A stretch of DNA of 64,000 bases, from the NCBI GenBank assembly GCA_036172245.1, contig JAYWIR010000039.1:1674001-1738000 (forward strand), given 5' to 3'. The notes below the pieces were generated by a model that had not been told where the DNA came from, did not search any database, and saw nothing but the letters and a program-made list of their open reading frames with translations. Position 1 is the first letter of the stretch. Every line of letters begins with the position of its first letter. This DNA is from Raillietiella orientalis (taxonomy: Eukaryota). Shown here in pieces: positions 10,101 to 55,279 of the stretch. The translations under genes and the position numbers were made by a program.

Positions 10101-13100
10101 CAATCTTGGAAAATGCTGATGAAGAAACAAGCAAGTCTGAGTTGGAAATGAAATCTCTCATGGAACAAGTGAGTCTTTGAAGTCACTTAATCTGTAACTT
10201 TGAAAATTTTAGTTGAGTCCTGTTGAGAGATATGCAATCAGTTTTGTTGAAACAGAACATTGGTCTGCTGAATTGTTGGCACAAGCTGAAGCTGAAATCG
10301 AGCAGCAAAAACGAGATTGGGAGCAACAGCGACTACAAGTTCTGAAGGAACAAGAGCAACAGATGGCCGAAATTGAAAGAAGTGAGGTGCTGACTTACTC
10401 CCGTGAGGATGCTACTACTCAGGTGACAACTAAAGGGAAGGGCCTTGTGAAAGAACAGGGAAGGGAGGAACGTATTTCACGTTTGAGCCGCCGACAACGT
10501 TCTATCCAACTTGGCCAAATGGTCTGTAAAAAAGTAAACCCTGCTGAGTCCCCCTTACTCAATCCATCTCTTCCATCTGAATCTTGTTCATCACCAGTTT
10601 TACTTTCCTCCTCTGAGCCACAAGCATCGGAAATCCCTTTGCTAAGCCCCCCTGTACAGCCTAATGTGGTATCAGTTGACAGTCCACGAACTCGATCTCG
10701 GGGAAGTGTTAGCATAAATTTGTGGACACTGGATGTGAGCCCGGTTTTGCCTGGTGTCAAACCAGTCACTGTTCATACTCGACGAACTTCCAAAGAGAAC
10801 AAAAAAAAACTTATTAATAATGAATCTTTTACTAGTGTGAAAATTGGTCATCGTACTGTGAACAAAGTTAATGCCCTCCATTCCTCTCCCAGATTTATGC
10901 TAAGGACAAGAAAAGTTCCCAAAGAGAAAAATCCAGGAGAACAAAATCACAAGAGTGCATTACCTCCAGGAGTCATACCATTAAGCTTATTAGAATAATA
11001 GGAATTGGGTAGCTGAATTACCACTTGCCAGATATCTTTCCCTTATCATTTATTGGATATTTGGCAATATGATGAAGTGCAGCTCAATAAATTATTATTG
11101 TGATTTGATTGGTCTTATTTCTTGGCCTTCCCCTGGGTTTGGTTGATAGAGTGCTGCTTGTAAGTTGGTATCCCTGGTTTTGGTAAGGTGCAGCACTACT
11201 TACCTATGCCAAGCCCAGGGGATTACCAAGTCATAAGCAAGCCAACCAAAATAAATATAAAGGTACTAATGTACCTGAGGGAGGAAACATTTATTTAAAC
11301 CGTACATGATGTAATTATGTACCCCAATTCTATTTGTAGCATTTTATTTAAGTTTCTCACTTGCTCTACACATTACATTGCATCACTATTGCTGATAATT
11401 TGGTCATGATTGATAGATTGTTGATTGGTTGAATTGTGTGCCAAAATGTTTTTTTCACTTGTGTTTTCCAATCATAAGCTGAACTTTGTTCTTATAGGTA
11501 TGGGAAGATTGGTTGACAGGAGAGCCAATGCCAGTAAGTAACTTGAACAGACAAACTGTAGAATTCTCTAAAATGCATACTTTAGCTCTGGGCTCCACCG
11601 ACACCTCCACATGAAGCTGGTGATATCTACATTGATCAATCACTCAACTTTTTGTATGGAACCGCCATTCTTGCAGAAGCACAGCTCCCTCCCATTTACA
11701 TAAAAAAAGAAACTGTTAAGAAACCCAAACAAGAAGCTTCTAAACAAATTCAGCATGCTTCTCTGTCATGTTCAGACCCCAAAGGTAACCTTGATTTTGT
11801 CACTGTTTGCTTAAACGCAGATGTCATTAGCTTTGCTTCATCGGCCTGGAAAAATGCGAAAAGAAGACTCACTTTATGCCCCGCGCTCATTATTTGATCG
11901 CCCTTCCCCAACTATTGCCAAGATGCGTCGAGATGCGAAGTTGCAGAAATTTAGAGGAATTGTGCGACCTTCTGTTGCTCTTCCAGGATTTCGATCCTTA
12001 TCAAGCAAGCCATATGTAGAAACAGAAGATCAACCTGAATGGCTCATTCATGAGGAATGGATCCTTCTTCAAATTATACAAAATCTGCAACAACTTCCTT
12101 TGAACCTAGTTGTTCTTTCTCCTGGCCATACTCCTAACTGGGATATGGTTGCAGATATGCTAAGCATAGTCACTCGAACTTACAGGTCCCCTAAGCAGTG
12201 TCGACATCACTATGAAACAGTTCTTATCCCAAGAGAAGAAGGAAAATTAGTGTACGATTCGTTGCCCAAAAAGTTTAAAAAACAAAAAAGCCCCCTTAAG
12301 ATTGGCTCAGCGGTAAACACACTATGTAGTTTTTTCATTTGACTTCATATTTTCTTTATAGAGTACTAGAACGATGAAAACATCGCAGCTGTATCTGCAG
12401 GACAATCATAGCAGCTTTACTAACATGTACCATGAATGTTTCGAGATTATTAGGTCACTAGCAAAAAAACGAACACCAACAACGAAATCAATGTTTATAA
12501 CACCTGTGGTTAAAAACCCAAAACATGCTGCAGTTCTCGCAGCTTCTGGCATAAACTATGATGCTCCATTGACCCCGATGCAAGTCGCTGCTAATAGAAT
12601 GGAACGTCTGGCTAGGGAAAAAGAGAAGCATTCTCAGGTGTGTGATTTCTTGGCGAACACTAATAAGTATTACATACAGCAAACTACGGAGTTGGCCATG
12701 CAGAAACGCTTGCAGCAAGTTACTAAACTGAGGTCTTCTCCTGTGCCAACGGTTATTCCCCTAAATGTGACATACAGTCAGTCATCTGCAATGTCTAGTA
12801 CCCCATCCAATCTAGCATCTGCTTTACGAACTGAGCATGATGCACGCTCCAGCAATCCAACATCCAGTGCTGTAGTTACTCTAGCTGGACTTACTTCTGT
12901 TCAGGTGCAGGGTAACCGTATGACAGTGGCAGGTCCTTCAAATCAAGTCCCTCGAGGTTTGTAAACCACCATCTCCTGTAGTTGTAACAACACAAAATAC
13001 AGCAGCTTCTCCAGGAACCAATCCCACATTGATTCAGACATCCAACTGCACCAAAACGCTGACACCTGCTCAAATTCAGTACCATAGGCAACAAGCATTG

Positions 13101-20265: not shown

Positions 20266-20444
20266 AGCACATCAATAAGATATGCTTTTCAAAGTCACAC
20301 GGATCTATAGGGAGTTGAGCGACAACCGCCATCAGGAAATGCTATTTCGCTCTACATTTTCTCTTCCTTCCAGACTGAATTACTCATATTTCCTGCATAT
20401 AGGGTCAACTTACACACAGGGCATCAATTCGCAGTGCAAACTGT

Positions 20445-21387
20445 GGAACCATCCGCAGTGCGTGTGGCACCATGCGTGCCCGCGTCGGAGGCCTTGTGGT
20501 TAAGGCCTCCGCGTGTGGCACCATGGGTCGCGAGTTCGAATACTTCGGCAGAAACTGAGACGCCGCTGCGTCATTGGGTTCCGAGTTTCTCCTGCAAAGG
20601 CGCTGGTTGGCCTAATCATTCGGGCGTGGCACCGGCGGTGGATTAAGCCGGAGGCCCCCGATGAAGGCCGGAACAATGGGAAATTGACCTTCGGGTCCTC
20701 CCAGGAATCAAGGAGTGGGGAGTTCCCCCTCCTGTCGTGCAAAGGAGAGCGGACCCCCCGCACCGGGGGACCCTCCGAGTCGTCGCCTCTTCACAGAGTG
20801 CACAAGGAAGCGAGAGCGATTCCCTGCGGGAAGGTGCAGCGCCCCTTCTGAGTTTCGGAAGCGTCCCTTCGGGGTTCTCTTCAGAGGAGTGAATAGGAGC
20901 GGTTCCCTTGAGGGTTCCCTCAGGAGAAGAAATTCCTACAAGCGGATCCTTTCCGGGTTCCCTTCGGAGAAGTTGAAATGAAGTTGAAATGGAGAGGACA
21001 GCCTCTCCCCATTGGTGGGGGGGTGTCCCTCCGGAGAGAATGAGGAAGGAGGATTCCCTTCGGGGTTCCCCTTCGGAGACAACCGGGGTGGGAGGTGCGA
21101 TCCCCCCCGTCCGGGGGGATCCTTCCCCAAGCGTGAGAGGAACGGACTCCTAGCCCTTCCTGGATTCATAGGGAGGACCCCCATCCCGGGGTGCCCCCTA
21201 TCCTGAAGAATTACACGCCCTCCTGCTGGCTGCCGCGGGCGGAGGGGCGTGGAAACAAAACAGTGTATTTAATGTTTAAAAAGAGCCACTTGCGCCGCGA
21301 GGCACGCGACCGGTTCTGAGGTATTTAGCGAATCAAAATAAAAAAAGAAAACTCTTAAAAAAAAAAGCTGGAAGGAAAACAGCAAAG
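20445..21387 (+). mobile_element. tRNA-headed, GC-rich, highly structured SINE-like retroposon with 14-bp target-site duplication
   Basis: Exact direct repeat GCAGTGCAAACTGT at 20431-20444 and 21388-21401. A-box-like AGGCCTTGTGG (20489-20499), B-box GTTCGAA (20534-20540), a hairpin-rich body and an A-rich 3' end (~21336-21387). Confidence 0.75.
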
Positions 21388-21401
21388 GCAGTGCAAACTG
21401 T

Positions 21402-28721: not shown

Positions 28722-31487
28722 TCAATTTTGGTTATTTTCCTTTTGCTGCTGTTTCCACATTTGTGTGTAAATACCACCAATTTCCAGCAAATCATCATGT
28801 CTGCACCATTATTTTTAGATATGTGTATAACTGAAATGTCTTGTTTACCTGCCATGCTCCACTATCCTTCCTTCTGCCATTACAAAAATGTTGTTAATAT
28901 GCATAATGGCTGACAAGCAACGGGTAAGAATTAGAGTGGTACGATTTTCACCAAAGTGTTGGAGAACAGTCTGGATTATGCAGAAATTTAGCTCATAAAC
29001 TAGATATCATCTTACTAAAATATCGGCCTCAGTCTGCATATCTAATGTATTTGTGAATTCATCTAATACCACAATTTGAGGGCTCCTAAGAATTAATCTT
29101 GCTATGGAAACTTGTTGCTTCTCTTCAGCACTTAGCTTTAAGCCATGCTCTCCCACTTGTGTATTGTAACCTTTTGGATATGTAAGAATTTTCTCATGCA
29201 ACCCAGCAGCTTCAGCTGCACAGATCACTTCTTCTTCACTAGCTTGTGGATTGCCATAATGAATGTTATAAAGAATAGTATCATTGAACAATACTGTATC
29301 TTGAGAAACAACACCAACAGCTTGGCGTAGGGAATGCTGTGTGACATGCTGAATATTTTGATCATCAATCTGTATATTACCACTGCTAATATCATAGAGT
29401 CGTAGTAAAAGACGAAGTACTGTAGTCTTACCACATCCTTTAGGCCCCACCTAAAAATGTTTCATAACTGAACTTTCAAATACAGTAAACTAACCAATGC
29501 CACAGTTTGACCTGGAGTTACTTTCAGATTGAAGCTGGAGAGTACAGTATGTCCATTAGGAAGCACAAAGCTGACATTATTAAACCCAATGTTTCCATTG
29601 AAAACCCTCAAGTCGGGAGCATTTGGAACATCCTTCACTTCTTGTTTTTCATCTAGTAAAGCCAACATATCCTCTATGTCCACAACGGACTTTTGAATAA
29701 TCCTGTTCTTTCTTATTATATTTTTCTTGACTCCAAGCTTCAGTACCTGTAATATGTACCAAACCAATGTAGTGGCATGTACAGCTGTGCTAAATAAGTT
29801 AAGAACAAGACCAGATCTCCAACAGACTGCTCTCCATGGACAATAAAATATATGCTGAGCATGCCTCCAGCAAGCAATCCTCCATTCATGGCAACATTTT
29901 GCACTGTGTTTAGAAGAGATAGAGAGAGTTGCGATTTCCACTCAGCCTGCTGGTAAAACTGCTTAGCAGTTTGCAATCGTTGTACTTCATAAAATTCAGC
30001 AGTGTTGCATTTCACAGTTTCAATATTAAGCAAAGAATCTACAGCTTTCGATGACATTTGATTTTCGTAATTATTCTGTGAATGGCGAAACTTGGTCCTC
30101 CATGTGGTTATGATTATTGTCCCCACTAGTATTTCATTGTGTCAACTTTAATTCTGCTGACAACTGACCTAAGTATACAGCCATTGTGCAAGCCATAATC
30201 AAACCAAACCAAATGTTGAAGACTGTAGAAAAATAAATTGTTGCTATTATTATATCAGCGAAGATGGGGAGAATGTTAAATAACAAATAGCTAAGCAGCA
30301 TAATGGCACTTTGAACTCCCTGTTCCATAATGTGAAGAACTTCTCCAGTTTTTCTACCCAGGTGCCAACTTAAGCTTAAGTTGTGCAAATGGGAAAACAG
30401 TTGAACCTAAAGAACTTAACAGAAATGGCAAACAACGAAATTACTAACCTGCAATGTTAATGAGCTATATTGTTGGACACGAATCCAAAGAAAGTTGTGA
30501 ACACTGGTAATCAACCCAGAAGAAGCAAATCCTTGAAGAAGCTTCAAGAGAACAAATACACTTATGATATTCCAGCAAAAAACAGGGTTGACAGAAAGGG
30601 AATCAATAAGATGCTTGTAATACAATGGAATGAATACATTTACTACTCTTCCACAAACAAGTAGCATAAAGCATGCTAAAATCCGAAGTTGTAAGCAGCA
30701 ATCACGTTTTGGCCACAGATAAGGAAACAGAGTCTTTGCTTGTTTCCAAAATCGTTTTATAAAAGGTTTGCTTGAATGTGACTATGAATGAATTGAAAAC
30801 TTGTTAGTTTTCATGCTGATTACCTGCTGATCAATTAGAATGGGTGAGTAATATGATATTCCTGGTGCTTTGTAACCTAAACCAAAAAGTAGAATGCTTG
30901 CTGTAAATCTTAACACATACAAGGAGAACTCCATTTTGGTTGATACACTGAGCAACTCTATTAAAAAATTAAAAAGAATGAAAGACTTACTTCTGAAGAT
31001 TAAACCACCAATCTTCATGGTTTATGTTCAACAGCACAAGGCATTCAGATACAAGAACTAGAGTCCACAGTACAAATAGTACTAATCCATGTCCTTTTGT
31101 TGGTATTGTGGGGAGCATATAATGTCGCTCAATGTAAATTAATAAATAAGAAAATGGCCAAATAATATAACTGGTGAACAAGGGGACAAGCATGTACCCA
31201 TATAGCAAGTGAGGCTCTATGATGGAAATCTGGAGTAAAAACCTTGAAGTTGCCAAAACAGGCATACAAATAGTAAGAAATATCTGCAACTTGAACCAGA
31301 AGGAAGTCTTCCTTGGAAAAAAACTATAGCGTGTTGCATATCTTCGATAGAATAAATACTGAATAGTTCCAAATATCAACATAAAAGCACAAATAACCGC
31401 TGGTGTGACAGTCTCAAAAAAACAAACATTAAACCCATTCGGTGTCCAAAGGACAATGAAACTTTCGTTTTTTTGACAAAACTTCAT
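28722..31487 (-). CDS. ABCB6: ABCB6/HMT-1-like ABC half transporter (TMD0-TMD-NBD), multi-exon, with degenerate ATPase motifs
   Basis: TMD0 (MKFC...CFFETV...PTKGHGLV), TMD ([43 protein letters not shown]), NBD with Walker [11 protein letters not shown]-loop [12 protein letters not shown] and Walker B IVVLDE. The last exon ...[18 protein letters not shown] ends at 28722. Confidence 0.92.
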
Positions 31488-33599
31488 ATTTCTTATGCTA
31501 AGTGACACAGAATGTAATTCTAATGTTTCAAATAATGCTCTTCTTTTTCAGAGCTCGAAAACTTCGTTTCCCTCACATGACGGTTTGATTGAAATGACCA
31601 AATGTAATGCTGAGAGCTTCTTTTCACCACACATTGATGAACACCAGGCTCTGAATTACGCTTTTACGAGATTTTACAGTGCGAAGAAAACTGTCCTCGC
31701 TGAAAATTAATTTTCCTAAGGTAAAGTGTCCAAATGTAAGCATGAAATAGCCAGCAAAGCTTTCTGATGTGCAGATGTCTAGAACCATAACTAACGTTCA
31801 CCTTTCTAATTCTTGCCACACCATAAAAAACATAATTAAGTCGCAATTTACTATCGACTTCCACATTTTTAATGTTCAGAGTTTTTCTTATAAATATGAA
31901 ATTATTGTTCTCTGGGATTCCTTATAGTTTTAACAATTCTCAAGAAATAGAGTTAAGATATTATTTACTATTTAAGGGAAAACTGAATAAAGTTTGAGCA
32001 CAAAGAATCAATAAACAAAAAGATGCTATTACTTGAAGTGTTTTTTTTTTTTTGTAACAGTTGAAGCGATTGCCTAAAACTGAACAGTTTTCTCGTGCTA
32101 AGGAGAAAATGATTGTAATTCATATATAGAGACCATTAGCCATTCTCATATTCATTTACTTTGCAGTATGTAAACTGTGAAAATTAAATTATGAGAAGAG
32201 GTCAACATGATTTGATGAGTCTCCTCGATTTTTTGGTTAAATACAGTTGATGGTAAAAATTTGCTTTGCAAAGCTATATACTTTTTCAAAGAAAATTTTA
32301 TGGGATGGTGTTTTTTTTGCTCTCTAGTGAAAGTAATGTTACCAATGTTCTAATATTCAGAGAAACAACATGGAAATTCATTCTGAGACCAGAGCCACTT
32401 TGGTGCCCGCAGAATAAGGTAAGAAGAGATCTTTTGTTTCACATTAGTAAGCTTTTTGGGAGACGAATAGCAAGAATACAATTTGTTATTCTAGCTGTGT
32501 GTGCTGTTATTTATTCTAGCTCTCTTCTAGATAACGACGCTTCTTAGATGTTGCAGTCTAGAGTGCAGAAGAAATCGTGAAAAGTGTGCCATATGAGAAT
32601 AATACTTGAGAGAAGAAAAAAAATCATCGATAGTGTAGCAGATGCTCATTAATCCCAGATTTCATTGGAGATGAGTCCATTTCGTTTACTGTTTTAGAGA
32701 AAACGCATTTTACAGCCTAAACGTTTAAAATCAAACAAATTGCCGTTACCATTCTCTGTTTCACGAGTTACAATCGAGAATTTCATGCATTAAATTCCTT
32801 TACAGTTTATTTCCTTCGCACTCTTAACATAATAAATGGCACCACTAAAAAGGATTTGAAGCTAGATATCCCAATAAAAATCCATAAAGTTTTTTCTTGT
32901 TATTCAACTGGTCTCTATTTAAAAAGAAAAAATCATTACAAGTTAAACTCTGATATCTATTTCGAAAATTTCATTAAGAAATCAATACTGATGCCAGAAA
33001 ACTTTCAAATGTATTCAGACAAATATATGTGTTTCTCATACTTTAGAAATCACCATATGTAAGTCATAATTACATCTGAGGCATCTATGTGTTTCTTCGT
33101 TTCACAACTGAAAGGAAAATTTGATTTCTAGTAGGGAGCCAAAATAACTTTGGGAACTTTAGGAATTCCATTGTGTTTTACCAAAGTTATGTTCACTCGC
33201 AAGATATAAAACTGTGAAGGCTAACGGGATTCTTTATAATAGACAAAGCGAAATTAATATCAAATTATGACATGTATCTCTGGACCTTAAAAGTATAGGT
33301 TTTTGCTTCTCGTGTGTAGATTTGTCCGAAGATGACAACAAGAAATCATGAACCTTTTTTTAGCGTAGTAACAATTTGTATGTTAATCAAGAAGTTATTC
33401 ACGAATATATCCTCGCATAATATTAAATAAATTTCATTTTATTGTTGAAACACCACTTCGTATCATACTCATATTCTTCTCATAGAAATTCCAATTATGA
33501 TCAATAATGCAAGTATCATGGCATTTGGATTTCTCAATGTATAAATAAGAAAGAATTTCTAAAAGAGTGACAATCATGACTATATTGCAGAAAAATGGA

Positions 33600-48011: not shown

Positions 48012-50652
48012 TCTCTAATGATTAAGGGCACTTTGTCCTTAAAGTGCACACCCGCTATGACTTACTAGTATTTGTTTTTACCCCCCTCCCTCTACGAATC
48101 CAAATCGTAACAGGAGAATAAAAAATGTGATTGAGTAGATTGGCAGCAGAGTTATGGCTGAATGTTGGCGGATTGATTACCACAGTTGAAACTGTAATGC
48201 ATTAAATAGGAGATGACGCCACCACTTGTTTGCATGCATACAATTTATACGTTGAACAACGTAGCAATCGGTTAACCTTTGGCAAATATTTCACTTAATC
48301 CTGACTAAAATAACACTGCTACGGTTCATAACTTGTAACTTTTCGAAAAAAAACTAGAAAATCACCTATGCTATTCCCTCTTGCACTCACTTGATCTCAG
48401 CTCTCCTTAACAAAACATTCCTATCTATGCACAAAAACCTTTCCTTGGATGTAGTTAATGATAACCCGATTTTATTTCAAATCGGAGCGATTCGATTTAC
48501 GATCATTTTTTTAGAGAAAACGTGCGCTGGAGGGCATGGTCAGGGTACTAAATTCGATGTTACTACAGTGGTGCTTTAATATGAAAAATGTGAATCGTAA
48601 ATTAAACTTTGCTCAGAAGAAAACAAAATAACTCATGACGCTGTAATCGCACAATTCATTTATTGAGTATAGGTGAAATTTCTCACATCTCCCACAGAGA
48701 GTTCGAATTTCATGTCAAGAAGCAGCCCACTTGGTTGAATACTCGAAATTCTTCCTTAGTACCGACGGTACTAAGGAAACGGTACTTCCCACCAACGGCG
48801 AATTTTCCATTCCGCATTCGCATATGGAAGTTCTTTTCGAGAAAGGGGAACGTTCGCTTTCGTGTAGATTTATGGTGGCGATTCCTAAAATTTCCATCGT
48901 ATTGGGACAATCCCATTTTTCGTATTCCTTGAATATCCTATTCTGAATTCCGAATATATTACCTCGAACTGCACTGTGATGAATTGCTTCACGGAGTTTT
49001 TAATAAATTGGACAACTGAGCAATCTGTAAACGATTCGAAAATTTTCATTCTTGCCTAAAACATTACTGAATCACAGATATTTGTGTAAATTTTTTGGCA
49101 CGATTTTTAAATATGCCAGCTTCCAATAAAAATAATTATCACATTGAAAGGAGAAGATGATAAGAGATGAAATAGCAACGTATTACTTAGGGATCTTTCA
49201 GCGATTAGCTATTCGTGTGATAATGCTAAGAATAGTTATTCTGAAAGTGTACAGCAATCAAATTAATAAGAGCTAATTTTTCATGCTGATTTCCCTTTAC
49301 ATTTCTTTCTATGTGTTAATTTCTCAAATCAAAAAGTACAGACAAAATGCCAAGTCGAATGTTTACACATTCGGCTTGGCATTTTAAATCCTAGCATAAA
49401 TCTGTTTTCCAACAAATCTGCGAATATTGCATGATGATTTAAATTACATACAAAGAAAGTATAAATCAGCAAGTGTTCGTTTTCCTTTCTTATGTCTTGG
49501 AGTTTTGAATATTCGCTAGCAAGTTTCAAGATGAGTACATAATCATGAGCACAGTATTTACCTGCCAATCAAAGTATGCAAGCATATTGCTAACACCTTC
49601 AAATACATGGTGCTGAAAAATCTCAAGATTGATTATTTCACAGATAAATAATTCTTAAGTATGGGAGTGCTACTTTATACATACGCTCTAACATCTTGAA
49701 AACTTACCAAATGAATTATATCGATATGCTACGCGAAAAAAAATGATGCAAATTTGAGGAAATACATCTATATAAGCCTTAATTCTGATTAGTTTTTGCA
49801 AAATTCTGAAAAACTGTCAACAAAAGCAGAAATGATTGTTTGGATTATTAAGTTACACAAAGGCAGTAATTCTTGTCCGAAGTTGTTGGAACATTACGAG
49901 TTTCTACGGATAAGTGTGTTTGCTGTCCTGTATGAAATTGGTATACGGTTGTTTGTGTTTTGATTCTTAAGCAGTTGAATGAAGTGAATGACAACCTATT
50001 CGCTATGTTACGTATGTCGTGCATGGCGTGCAATGGAAATTATTGTTTGAATTTGTATTTCAGAAATTAGTTAACTACGTGGAAATTCAAATCAGTTGCG
50101 TTCGTGAAAGTTCAAGTGTGCATTTTGACTTGCATTTCATTTTGTGTATAAGAAATGGAGTTCTTCGTTTAAACATTTTCTTAACTTTGTGGAGCGTTTG
50201 TGCGTTCAGAATTTTCATGACTTTCGTTCGCGAGAAATTTTTGTAAATATTCAAATGTTTTCATCTAATTGGAAAAAAAGTTTACAAATAGACGTTCATT
50301 AAAATAAGAGGACGAATAGTGAATAGGGATGTTGGGGTGTTTCCTAAATATAAAGTAAGCGTGTGCCACTGGATACTATGTTCTTTTGTAAGTCTTTGAT
50401 TATTTAACAAGATGATAATGTATTGATAAAGATTTTCTCGAGTTTAATTTTTATCTACTGATCTGGAAATCTTTAAATTCTAAAATCTACGTTTTTATAA
50501 TTGTATCCGATTAATGGATTTTTATCAGTGCAATTATTTAATCCATGCAGTTTTGCTTCCAATAATAACTGAAAATAAGTCCATACTGATAGCCTAATCC
50601 TTTTAACTAGATGTAGCTCTTATTTGGAAAGAGCATGTGAATTTTTTTTGAA

Positions 50653-53357
50653 ATGCCTCCACATCCAGGTGCCATGTATGATGAGCATAATACCCATACA
50701 AGGAATCAAGTTATTAGTGCTACTTCTTCACAGATGTACGGAAGCCCAGTTATATTTAATAATGAAAATTTATGTTTTCCTTCAAATTTGTATACTGCCA
50801 CACCCTCTGCTCACAAAAGCAACCAGGTGTTTTCTTTTCCTTCTACTCATTTATTGTCTTTAAATCTGGAAAAAAAAATGCTAAATTTCTTGGGAAGTTC
50901 TATGTGTACATTACACAGCCCTCTACCAGCTTCAGAATCAAATGGAAATGCGTGCATACCAAAACTTAAAAGAACATGGCTGGAAAGGCATTCACAGCAT
51001 ATTGATGAATATGGGCAGTCTTTCTCTGATAGATGTGATTCTTTTCTAGCATTTAAGGAACAATTAAACAGAGGTTACACTTTGGGAATGTCTACAGATC
51101 CATTTGTGCACAAAAGAAAATTTTGTCTTGAATCTTTTTTGGATAGTTCCACTTCTAAGCTTCAGATTAGCTCTAAGCTGGATGAAGCAAGGAGTAAAAA
51201 GAAATCTTCAAATACATTTTTGCAAGATGGCCCTTGTTGGCAAGTTGCCCCTCACCTTCAGATGTGTAGAGAATGTCAACAACAAGAAAAAGATCCTAAT
51301 GAAATGGGTATTTTTTGTCGATTTGTAGCTTTTCGCCGACTTTGCCATTCAGATGGCATATTGAGGGAAGCAGGATTTTCAAGATTAGAACAAGACTGTC
51401 GGCAAGAAGATTTACAGCTATGGTTACCAGATCTTCGCAATCCTACAAGATGCTTTGCTGCAGACACAGCTAGGTTTTTAATTGGTTGTGTAGGACATCA
51501 GTTATGCGATTTGGCTTGCAAAGAACAAGGAACCTTGCTAGGAAGATTGCCTTATTGGAGACGGGCTGTTCCTGGTGTCCGAGAAATGTGTGATGTGTGT
51601 CAAACCACCATATTCAATGCACACTGGGTTTGTGAGCACTGTGGTTTTGTTGTGTGTCCTGACTGTTTTCAATCACGCCTTGAGAATGGTGCTGCCACAT
51701 TTGATGACGATATCCAGACTCAGGAATCAGATAACAAGGATAGATATCAGTGGCTTATGTGTGACAAGTATACACAACATGACCCTTCCCAGTTATTGCT
51801 GGCACAAATCATAGCTAATGATGCATTGGCGCAATTAAATGAGATGGCACATGAACTCATCAGCAGAATGGGTCTTTCCTATCAGTGTAGCTGTGCATCT
51901 CCTCAGCAGCCTGTTCATACTCCTTATACCCAAGATTATATGTCCCATTGGTTAAGGGATGCTATTCAGGATAGTTATGAGGTAAGAAATTCAGTATATC
52001 AGTAATATGCTTCTTTTATATTTAGGAAGAAAAAAATCAGAAGCAAGTGCAACGAAATTCTTCTTTACGTCAGTTTTTACTGCATGATAAGCCTCTCAGT
52101 CCTCTCAGTCCCAATCCACCATTTGTGAAAAATGACAGTCTGTATTCCCTGTCAGCACTTGGTTGTGAATTTCTCCCTCCCCATTCTATGACTTTAACTC
52201 AGTCACACACCCTGTACCCTGATGTGCCTCATTCATGGTTGTGTGATGGGCAGCTGCTGCTGCTGCATGACCCCCTTTGTCATCATAATTCCATTTTATT
52301 TCGTGAACAGTGGAGACGTGGTCAGCCTGTAATGGTTAGTGGCATACAACATCGCCTGCGTTCTTCTTTGTGGACACCTGCTGCATTCTCACGGGATTTT
52401 GGTCATATTAGAAATGATCTCATAAATGTGCTGACAGGTTGCATTGTGGCAGATCAACCTATGCGTCGGTTCTGGGAAGGATTTGAAGACACACGGAGAG
52501 TTCTAAAAGATGAACATGGTTGTTCTATGGTCTTAAAACTTAAAGACTGGCCACCTTCTCATGACTTTGCAGAATTACTTCCTTCTCGTTTTCGTGATCT
52601 CAACCGTTGTCTTCCTCTTCCTGAATATACTAAAAGAGATGGAGCTCTCAATTTAGCAGCAAGGCTGCCTGATTCCATGGTGCGTCCAGATCTAGGCCCA
52701 AAATTGTACATAGCTTATGGTTGTGCTCATTATCCATCTATAGCCAGCACAAATTTGCATCTTGATATTTCAGATGCCACCAATATTATGGTGTATGTGT
52801 GTGCTCCAAAGGATGTTGATAGCCAAAAACAGAGAAAAAATGTACTGCTTGCACTAGATGAAGCAGGATGTGATGTGTTAACACTTCGCCGTGTTAGACA
52901 ACAGGGTGTTGTGCCTGGTGCTTTGTGGCATATATACCATCCATGTGATGCAGATAAAATCAGAGAGTTTTTGAATCGCATGGCCATTAAACTCGGACGA
53001 AAACTAGAATCTAATCATGACCCTATTCATGACCAGAGTTGGTATCTTGATGGACTTCTCAGGGAACAGCTTTATCATGACTACGGTGTAAGAGGCTATG
53101 CAATTGTACAGTGTCTTGGTGATGCAGTGTTTATACCAGCTGGTGCACCACATCAGGTGCGCAATTTGCTTAATTGCATTAAGGTGGCAGAAGATTTTGT
53201 GAGTCCAGAAAACGTATCACATTGTTTTCATTTAACTGAACAGTTTCGGCATCTTTCTGAAATGCATACCAATCATGAAGACAAACTTCAAATTAAAAAC
53301 ATTATTTATCATACAGTAAAAGATGCAGTTAGCGTGCTTCTTTCCACAAAGTCTTGA
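50653..53357 (+). CDS. KDM3: Lysine-specific demethylase KDM3/JMJD1 (H3K9me1/2), ~886 aa; exons 50653-51981 and 52026-53357
   Basis: FLQDGPC, FCRFVAFRRL, zinc finger VREMCDVCQTTIFNAHWVCEHCGFVVCPDC and JmjC (LKLKDWPP, TNLHLDISDA, GAPHQVRNL) with intact HxD...H. One 44-nt GT-AG intron joins the two ORFs in frame. Confidence 0.96.
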
Positions 53358-54069: not shown

Positions 54070-55074
54070 TTAATTTGAAGAGCTAACTATTTTGGATACA
54101 TTTTTTCTGCCTGAAGTGCTATGCTTAAGCTCTGTGTTTTCATCATGTATCAAATCCACATTTACTGAAGGTGGAATAAGCAAATCTTCACAGTCTTTTA
54201 TGGCACTGATGATATGTTGTAGATTCCAGCACTTTGGTAGTAAAGCAGACTCCAATGAGAATGGACCATAACGGATACATCTGATCTTTGTGCAAGTAGC
54301 AGCAGTTCTTAATGCAACACCTATATCATGAATTAAAGTTTTGAAGTATATTTCATACTCATTTACACACTGCACTTGAATATCAAAACTTGGCGGATCA
54401 AATCTAACCAGTAAGATATCATATAAAATTGGAGGGGTACAACCAGCAACTCTTAGAAGACCTTGATTAGCTATTTCATAAGCTTCTTGACTGTTAAGTG
54501 CTACACCACAGTACTCATACATTTTTTTGTGATGTGCAGCTTGAATAATGCTCAAGACTTTTTCCATTTTATTTTTGGTGGCATGTTTGTAGGTGGTTCG
54601 ATAAACAACTTTTCCATCCTTATAATTTGTATCTGTATTAAATCCAAGTTCACCACTTAAATGATAACTTCTAACTGTCCTACTGATTTGCCACTTACGT
54701 GCCACATAGCATTTGTCATTAATAGCCATTATACTAAGACCAGAAGTACAATATCCCAACAAATGAAGCCATGTTAATTTAAAATCTTCTATCTGATATC
54801 TATCTCCAACAACTAACGGATGATCAGCTAAATTAGGTTGTGCAACCACTCTTAAATCAGAATTTGCATTTCCTTCAATCTTAATAAAATTTGCAGGAGG
54901 TCTAACCGAGAGCTTATTTAGATCCTTACATAAGTTGTGTAAAATTGCTGCGCGAACGGCACACACGTCTTTTTCGGCCGGTTTGTAGATACAAAATATG
55001 CCATTTAGTTGCTTCCATGCATGTGGTGCGTAAGTGCATGACCTACACAAATGTTTATAAACTCTGGCAAACAT
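54070..55074 (-). CDS. TRUB2: Mitochondrial pseudouridine synthase TRUB2-like, single exon, 334 aa
   Basis: LNGIFCIYKP, LADHPLVVG, LNSQEAYEIANQGLLR, FDPPSFDIQVQCVNE, LIHDIGVALRTAATCTKIRCIRYGPF are TRUB2-type segments; the N-terminus is basic and targeting-peptide-like. Confidence 0.9.
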   Translation of the reverse strand: MFARVYKHLCRSCTYAPHAWKQLNGIFCIYKPAEKDVCAVRAAILHNLCKDLNKLSVRPPANFIKIEGNANSDLRVVAQPNLADHPLVVGDRYQIEDFKLTWLHLLGYCTSGLSIMAINDKCYVARKWQISRTVRSYHLSGELGFNTDTNYKDGKVVYRTTYKHATKNKMEKVLSIIQAAHHKKMYEYCGVALNSQEAYEIANQGLLRVAGCTPPILYDILLVRFDPPSFDIQVQCVNEYEIYFKTLIHDIGVALRTAATCTKIRCIRYGPFSLESALLPKCWNLQHIISAIKDCEDLLIPPSVNVDLIHDENTELKHSTSGRKNVSKIVSSSN

Positions 55075-55279
55075 AAGAGCCTACTGCAACAAAAACAATT
55101 GATGATGTAATCAACGCACGCCCTCTTGAAATTACATCTTCATTCCAGAATAAATGAAGAATATTATTGTCGGAAATTCATGACATTAGACCATACGTAA
55201 TGCGCTCATATTGTTCCAACTATATGAACAGCTAAAGAAACATCACCACTTCCTTCACGCAAATTACAGTTGCAGCATA

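Follow-up and report, generated by a model that had tools for sequence, protein, structure and literature searches.

In a stretch of DNA from Raillietiella orientalis (contig JAYWIR010000039.1, positions 1,674,001 to 1,738,000 of the forward strand), what appears to be a domino/SRCAP-type gene carries a strongly folded interval at 10999-11332, directly after the stop codon of its predicted short isoform. The whole stretch of 64,000 nucleotides (nt) is called the window here, and positions are counted from its first letter. Our preferred explanation, to which we assign a probability of about 0.45, is that the interval would act in cis as an RNA fold at the intronic poly(A) signals ending the short (DOM-B-type) mRNA, where it would tune polyadenylation against splicing, and that its core is a diverged copy of a hairpin shared by two groups of relatives, called T and A. 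Of the new results, the hairpin of T and A stands most firmly: its conservation equals that of the adjacent exons, and it matches no Rfam family.

A folded interval after the short-isoform stop

The minimum free energy of RNA folding was -115.6 kcal/mol for 10999-11332, compared with -83.0 +/- 4.9 kcal/mol for 100 dinucleotide shuffles (z = -6.67), none of which equalled it. The window was also scanned with 1592 sliding segments of 334 nt, for each of which the folding excess was corrected for GC content. The segment 11001-11334 ranked second of all, with an excess of -42 kcal (-4.4 standard deviations, sd), and the sole larger excess was found at 20441-20774 (63% GC). From the z-score together with the rank in the scan, it follows that the folded structure at 10999-11332 is real and rare in its surroundings.

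The structure consists of several parts, all given for the plus strand. An outer stem pairs 10999-11021 with 11311-11332 and contributes approximately 22 kcal/mol of stability (about -22 kcal/mol). It encloses, first, hairpin A (11022-11070), a 13-bp stem (11025-11036 with 11056-11067, plus one pair) closed by a 17-nt loop and located between the stop and the first AATAAA, and second, a long hairpin at 11104-11250. The latter is built from the helices P0 (about 11105-11113 with 11241-11249), P1 (11114-11125 with 11226-11237), and P2 (about 11129-11143 with 11208-11222), and an apical helix (11148-11155 with 11190-11197). Sub-parts were compared with 200 shuffles each. Both the long hairpin (z = -4.69) and hairpin A (z = -4.56) folded better on their own than every shuffle, while the 5' flank (z = -1.7; equalled by 10 of 200) and the 3' flank (z = -1.9; equalled by 7 of 200) were unremarkable. 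A repeat search recovered the same arms as inverted repeats I1 (29 nt, 79% complementary), I3 (20 nt, 75%), and I14 (12 nt, 92%).

Two AATAAA hexamers, at 11086-11091 and 11250-11255, are the sole AATAAA or ATTAAA within the 500 nt that separate the stop from the next acceptor. The first would be part of a small predicted stem (CAATAA/TTATTG). An earlier note on this DNA had drawn attention to the two signals and to the stems 10999-11021/11311-11332, 11025-11036/11056-11067, and about 11104-11250. All strings it quoted were found where it had placed them, and the hexamer positions were borne out, the one at 11086 lying 12 nt before the long hairpin and the one at 11250 at the 3' base of that hairpin.

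Three further features of the window are as follows. In the apical part of the long hairpin, the consensus donor hexamer GTAAGT (11159-11164) is complementary to TACTTACCT at 11197-11205, a sequence which we take to resemble the donor-pairing 5' end of U1 small nuclear RNA (snRNA). The stretch at 20400-21400 (54-63% GC), which shows the most extreme folding excess of the window, could be a promoter resembling a CpG island, or else a repeat rich in GC. Finally, at 49344-49385, otherwise unremarkable AT-rich sequence contains a 19-bp hairpin that is nearly perfect (95% complementary) and closes on a loop of 4 nt.

A conserved hairpin in two insect lineages

Related sequence was available from 17 metagenome contigs with the DOM-B-type exon, retained from 223 pattern matches by a protein-alignment scan and amounting to 91.5 kb in total. 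Only two groups had enough flanking sequence for comparison: T (L008 and L010-L016, 96-98% mutually identical) and A (L005-L007). They represent deeply diverged insect lineages, with 65-72% identity between their exons and with short-isoform tails of 131 and 764 residues after the DOM-B-type motif.

When one contig of each group was aligned (L012 and L007), five alignable blocks were found over about 11 kb. Four were exonic; the fifth, the sole non-exon block, joins L012:6339-6471 with L007:9664-9804 and extends, with gaps, to L012:6652 and L007:10038 (blastn E = 3e-15 and 1.6e-16). The element defined in this way begins at an aligned AATAAA, which precedes the first shared helix by 31-32 nt, start to start; the positions of hexamer and hairpin are 6345 and 6376 in T and 9670 and 9700 in A. 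It includes a perfectly conserved run of 26 nt, and it is non-coding, since its insertions and deletions are not multiples of three.

The T/A element forms one long hairpin with a variable apex and five shared helices: (i) P0', TGTGT/GCACA; (ii) P1, CTTATYTCTTGR/SCAAGATATRAG, with a mismatch at position 6; (iii) P2, CGTTTCCAAGT/ACTTGGAG; (iv) P3, CAAAGG/CCTTTG; and (v) P4, GTTTTGGTGTCA/TGGCACCAAAAC. In its consensus structure of 86 pairs, four pairs showed changes on both sides, and 10 G-U pairs were present in all six aligned sequences. The sense strand folded with z-scores of -5.47 (T) and -3.27 (A), the antisense strand with -2.54 and -2.90, respectively. Within T, only 6 of 270 hairpin columns varied, compared with 324 of 1607 in the remaining aligned non-coding sequence after the stop. 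Low variation (0-2 variable columns per 30 nt) continued for about 60 nt beyond the hairpin and broke at about L012:6710, next to a GU-rich stretch; beyond this point, 17-27 columns varied in some bins and 2-5 in others. The short mRNA may end at this boundary.

The position of the element relative to the coding sequence is not fixed. It follows the stop by 523 nt in T and by 2034 nt in A, compared with 88 nt for the corresponding hairpin of the window, and the distance to the next exon varies as well. At the distance from the stop at which the window is folded, the relatives showed no structure (about -1 sd), the hairpin of T lying some 520 nt after the stop. The fixed neighbour of the element is the AATAAA. 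Rfam returned no match for L012 or L007 at E up to 1, and neither the exact 21-nt T/A block nor protein alignment revealed further orthologous loci in the genome-contig and viral-contig collections. Judged from these sequence comparisons, the element clearly has a function in T and A. Irrespective of the window copy, it is plainly a candidate for a new family of cis-regulatory RNAs.

The base of the window's long hairpin corresponds to this element in several respects. The 5' arm of P1, taken as a pattern from T and A (CTTATYTCTTGR), had one exact match in the window. This match, at 11114 on the sense strand, sits at the base of the long hairpin and inside the orthologous interval of 500 nt. 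By chance, 0.06 matches are expected in a window, and 6 of 100 shuffles contained at least one; scaled to the interval, the chance is about 2e-4, or about 2e-3 when ten possible helix arms are allowed, both figures being rough arithmetic. The 3' arm of P1 in the window agrees with SCAAGATATRAG at 10 of 12 positions and retains the mismatch at position 6. P2 follows in register after an internal loop of 2-3 nt; 10 of its 11 pairs form in the window, six of them with changes on both sides. A MAFFT alignment, which is blind to structure, let 20 of the 22 T/A pairs of P1 and P2 form in the window. Across four sequences, 94.3% of the P1/P2 cells were paired, compared with 30.6-49.4% when the partners were slid, and the covariation score of the alignment was reached by one of 500 shuffles. 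The order of AAUAAA, U/GU-rich stretch, and hairpin is common to the window, T, and A. Another P1-like match, with one mismatch, was found at 49489 and was rejected: no hairpin has its base there, and chance alone would produce 2.7 such matches.

The outer stem and hairpin A had no counterpart in T or A and are window-specific elaborations. A nucleotide search with the complete 334 nt against the 17 loci gave no match at E up to 1.

The domino-type gene and its predicted isoforms

Upstream open reading frames (ORFs) on the plus strand matched the Pfam domains SNF2-rel_dom (E = 3e-22) and Helicase_C (E = 1.8e-23). The exon part common to both predicted isoforms (10213-10421, plus strand; LSPVERYA...ATTQ) was identified as an ORF between the acceptor ag/TTGAGT and the donor CAG/GTGACA, and it aligned to relatives over residues 1-71. 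The donor, at 10422, is weak and non-consensus, and donors at this place are weak in every lineage (GTGACA in the window, GTTAAT in T and A, GTCACT in L004). The frame stays open across it, from 10213 to 10998. The read-through extension at 10422-10998 would thus encode the C-terminus of the short (DOM-B-type) isoform and form the first part of an intron for the long isoform. It ends with a TAA at 10996-10998 and contains, at about 10681-10767, a conserved DOM-B-type motif. In 22 database proteins, this motif likewise comes after the N-terminal exon sequence, and across eight aligned sequences (the window and seven DOM-B-like relatives) it is invariant. In the genomic contigs of the relatives, the same single contiguous ORF crosses the donor. 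The idea that the short tail had been cut off by an insertion was rejected, as 11333-11572 contains no plus-strand ORF of at least 40 amino acids.

The first part of the next long-isoform-specific exon (plus strand, LWAPPTPP...) lies at 11586-11711 and was matched by tblastn in L006 and L007 over residues 1-42 and in L012 over residues 1-28. Ahead of it, the sequence can be read as a putative in-frame microexon of 36 nt (11499-11534, plus strand; ag/GTATGG...GCCA/gtaagt) with a strong polypyrimidine tract and a GTAAGT donor, the acceptor of which (11499) would close the intron containing the structure. No homology was found for this microexon, and T and A splice directly to the MW.PPTPP exon. 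Downstream exons gave a weak Myb/SANT-like match (Myb_DNA-binding, 17.6 bits, below the cut-off of 24.4).

Taken together, the helicase domains, the read-through ORF with its DOM-B-type motif, and the downstream LWAPPTPP exon support the gene and isoform context proposed earlier, i.e. a domino/SRCAP-type gene with a DOM-B/DOM-A arrangement, and we infer that 10999-11332 would be 3' untranslated region (UTR) in the short form and intron in the long form. In Drosophila, both domino isoforms are reported to be non-redundant and essential, DOM-B being SWR1-like and DOM-A being NuA4/TIP60-like, and the same report lists two-isoform domino genes in bee, wasp, ant, beetle, and spider (PMC7239659).

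Other genes in the window include ABC-transporter-like exons at 29007-31547 (minus strand), two large exons that by eye resemble JmjC/KDM3 at 50641-53357 (plus strand), and a single-exon ORF for a TRUB2-like pseudouridine synthase at 54073-55080 (minus strand). The best named matches of the latter, from scorpion, sawfly, and spittlebug, were 43-45% identical, which points to an arthropod as the source of the window, and PF01509 is found in its relatives.

Proposed role and competing explanations

The poly(A) site looks canonical in its linear sequence. In T and A, UGUGU follows the hexamer at 26-28 nt, and in the window a GU/U-rich run begins at 8 nt. This U/GU-rich stretch is at the same time the 5' strand of the hairpin base (UUGUGAUUUGAUUGGUCUUAUUUCUUGG in the window, UGUGU and then CUUAUYUCUUG in the relatives) and presumably serves as the downstream element of the poly(A) site. 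The site would then be open until the 3' strand has been transcribed, 100-290 nt later, and cleavage during this time would yield the short isoform. Closure of the hairpin would mask the downstream element and, in the window, part of the AAUAAA also; the polymerase would read on, and splicing from the weak donor at 10422 would yield the long (DOM-A-type) isoform. The analysis shows the fold and its rarity, the gene context by homology, the conservation between T and A, and the agreement of the window's basal helices with theirs in position and structure; we infer that cells use this AAUAAA, that the hairpin closes in vivo, and that its effect runs in the direction described. A more speculative extension, which we regard as doubtful, is that the hairpin is ancient, conserved from the lineage of the window to T and A, and works as a co-transcriptional timer, in which the interval between transcription of the 5' and 3' strands sets the output of DOM-B versus DOM-A.

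Several results weigh against this proposal. The minus strand of 10999-11332 folds equally well (z = -6.66), with similar G-U counts on both strands. The signal is thus strand-symmetric, a palindrome at the DNA level, and the fold alone does not indicate which strand is relevant. Predicted accessibility after the AAUAAA did shift in the masking direction when the 3' arm was added, but only modestly, which is not decisive. Between the stop and the element, further AATAAA or ATTAAA hexamers are present in both lineages, two in T and six in A. Other contrary results concern the link between the window and the T/A element. An nhmmer profile of T and A gave five matches in the window at E up to 100, none of them in 10999-11498. 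In local alignments of the window intron with the T and A introns, 30 and 26 of 200 shuffles, respectively, scored equally or better, and the best alignments fell elsewhere. The 3'-arm pattern of T and A had no match in the window's hairpin with up to three mismatches. A covariance model of the window hairpin, run on the 17 loci, listed 35 matches at E up to 10; the T/A element was not among them, and the best was an unrelated palindromic insertion in L011. The last test had low power, because Infernal penalises large insertions heavily and those needed here are 225-289 nt. The interior between the P1 arms comprises only 100 nt in the window versus 225 and 289 nt in T and A, and the apical blocks of the latter (P3, P4, TGTGCTTGTTTATATTT, AGTTTGGTGTGGCA, and CTGCCTTTGCCATTCCAAACTTGGAG) are absent from the window. 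They are missing even though exon identity between the window and T (65% and 74%) is similar to that between T and A (65% and 70%).

Since the profile, local-alignment, and covariance-model tests were not supportive, we consider it probable, not proven, that the hairpin at 11104-11250 is a diverged orthologue of the T/A hairpin. The earlier note had named, among possible grounds against its reading, a lack of conservation in relatives and a match to a dispersed family of miniature inverted-repeat transposable elements (MITEs), and the outcome largely favoured the note. On the first point, its expectation held for the base of the long hairpin, where P1 and P2 correspond to the T/A hairpin at the same place; it did not hold for the outer stem and the 12-bp hairpin, and homology was not significant in the unbiased tests. 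On the second, no dispersed copy was found in the window or the 17 loci, which weakens an origin from palindromic or MITE-like DNA.

Such an origin, though unlikely in our estimate, would make the interval lineage-specific palindromic DNA without RNA function, produced by a local inverted duplication or inserted as a MITE-like or foldback element, and would leave the 12-nt match to T and A as chance. Located in the 3' UTR of the short isoform, it may merely supply the AATAAA signals. The equal folding of both strands (z = -6.67 and -6.66) and the failure of the unbiased homology tests are consistent with it. Moreover, the interval resembles MITEs in its length of a few hundred bases and in its lack of coding sequence, and its outer arms could be read as terminal inverted repeats of 20-23 nt, with a TA on each side that could be a Tc1/mariner-type duplication. 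These introns do contain genuine MITE-like insertions. An example is L011:1-230, a palindromic element within the intron that precedes the DOM-B-type exon; its 56-nt arms are 96% complementary, and a further palindrome lies inside the element at 116-178. The four other T loci that cover the region (L008, L012, L013, and L014) lack it and align only from L011:263 onwards, so that it looks like a presence/absence insertion of this kind. In contrast to that element, the arms of the window structure (11002-11021 with 11311-11330, 20 nt) are only 75% complementary, and no second copy of the 334 nt was seen in the window, where the best other match was 14 nt, or in the 91.5 kb of related loci. TA is self-complementary, so that the apparent duplication may simply lengthen the stem. 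Also unlike a MITE, the interior consists of several independent hairpins and not of one foldback, and one of these matches a conserved element at the orthologous site, with the exact P1 match inside the orthologous interval and P2 in register.

If the interval does act as RNA, its effect on the poly(A) site could have the opposite polarity. The hairpin might fold away 150-310 nt and thereby join the AAUAAA to a cleavage site and GU-rich element beyond it, in which case the 3' UTR of the short mRNA would end in the hairpin, and the short isoform would require it instead of being opposed by it. This main functional rival seems to us quite unlikely. The AAUAAA precedes the first helix by 12 nt in the window and by 14 nt in T (to helix P0), which would make the through-space distance to the far side canonical; the conservation within T spans the hairpin plus about 60 nt and collapses at the GU-rich stretch near L012:6710; and the second AATAAA of the window coincides with the hairpin's 3' base. 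A precedent is described for human T-cell leukaemia virus 1 (HTLV-1), in which a folded spacer of 276 nt juxtaposes AAUAAA and cleavage site (PMC2645353, PMC3694450). Its Rex-responsive element is likewise a long folded RNA directly after the AAUAAA, close in size to the T/A hairpins (PMC2645353, PMC3694450). However, the viral structure is needed to unite distant signals, whereas the domino site has a canonical-looking downstream element in its linear sequence, with UGUGU or a U-rich stretch 8-28 nt after the AAUAAA, so that bridging is not needed. Whether by masking or by bridging, the structure would control how far the intronic poly(A) site is used and, through this, the proportion of the two isoforms.

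Least probable is an intron-hosted RNA independent of poly(A) choice (a long microRNA-type precursor, a small-RNA source, or a double-stranded target of the ADAR or Staufen type): the imperfect duplex of 49 pairs, the existence of very long microRNA hairpins in invertebrates according to a survey of such giant hairpins (PMC12553114), and the long invariant apical blocks of T and A, which could be mature products or protein sites, are compatible with it, but the best Rfam match of the window was MIR8562 with 21.4 bits against a gathering score of 211 (L012 and L007 giving none, as noted above), the conserved T/A blocks are spread over 300 nt and not limited to one arm, the part common to the window is the basal helix and not a candidate mature arm, and the element is fixed beside the AAUAAA while its distances to the stop (88, 523, and 2034 nt) and to the next exon vary.

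With the proposed role in polyadenylation, the finding would belong to a known class, cis-acting RNA structure at a processing site, with the window copy as a probable diverged member of the T/A family. Its closest known systems are retroviral poly(A) hairpins, which mask in human immunodeficiency virus 1 (HIV-1) and bridge in HTLV-1, and composite-terminal-exon polyadenylation in competition with splicing. The HIV-1 hairpin is described as including poly(A) signal elements and as setting the efficiency of 3'-end processing by its stability (PMC2645353). Similarly, the first AAUAAA and the U/GU-rich downstream stretch of the window are predicted to be largely paired. The HIV-1 hairpin differs in being viral and about 50 nt long and in masking the hexamer itself, whereas the modelled domino hairpin is cellular, measures 147-330 nt, and would mainly cover the downstream element, in an intron where polyadenylation competes with splicing. 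Composite-terminal-exon (intronic) polyadenylation, as reported in PMC5546720, shares with the domino arrangement the read-through of a weak donor to an intronic poly(A) site, which results in a different C-terminus. The known regulators of that class are mostly proteins and the U1 small nuclear ribonucleoprotein. A literature search revealed no report of RNA structure at the domino isoform switch. The word 'domino' is absent from the main text of a screen for conserved structures in Drosophila (PMC6288889) and from that of the giant microRNA hairpin survey (PMC12553114), although the supplements of both could list the gene.

One arthropod gene supplies the scaffolds of two chromatin machines, a SWR1-like and a NuA4/TIP60-like one, and nothing was found in the literature search on how the ratio of DOM-A to DOM-B is set. 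A conserved structure on the poly(A) signal of the short form would provide a mutable handle on this ratio. In its proposed role, the domino hairpin would also offer a rare cellular case of a poly(A) site governed by RNA folding, a mode of control otherwise mainly retroviral. Were the timer to hold true, an RNA fold would encode how H2A.Z-type exchange is balanced against H4 acetylation and would couple this balance to the speed of the polymerase.

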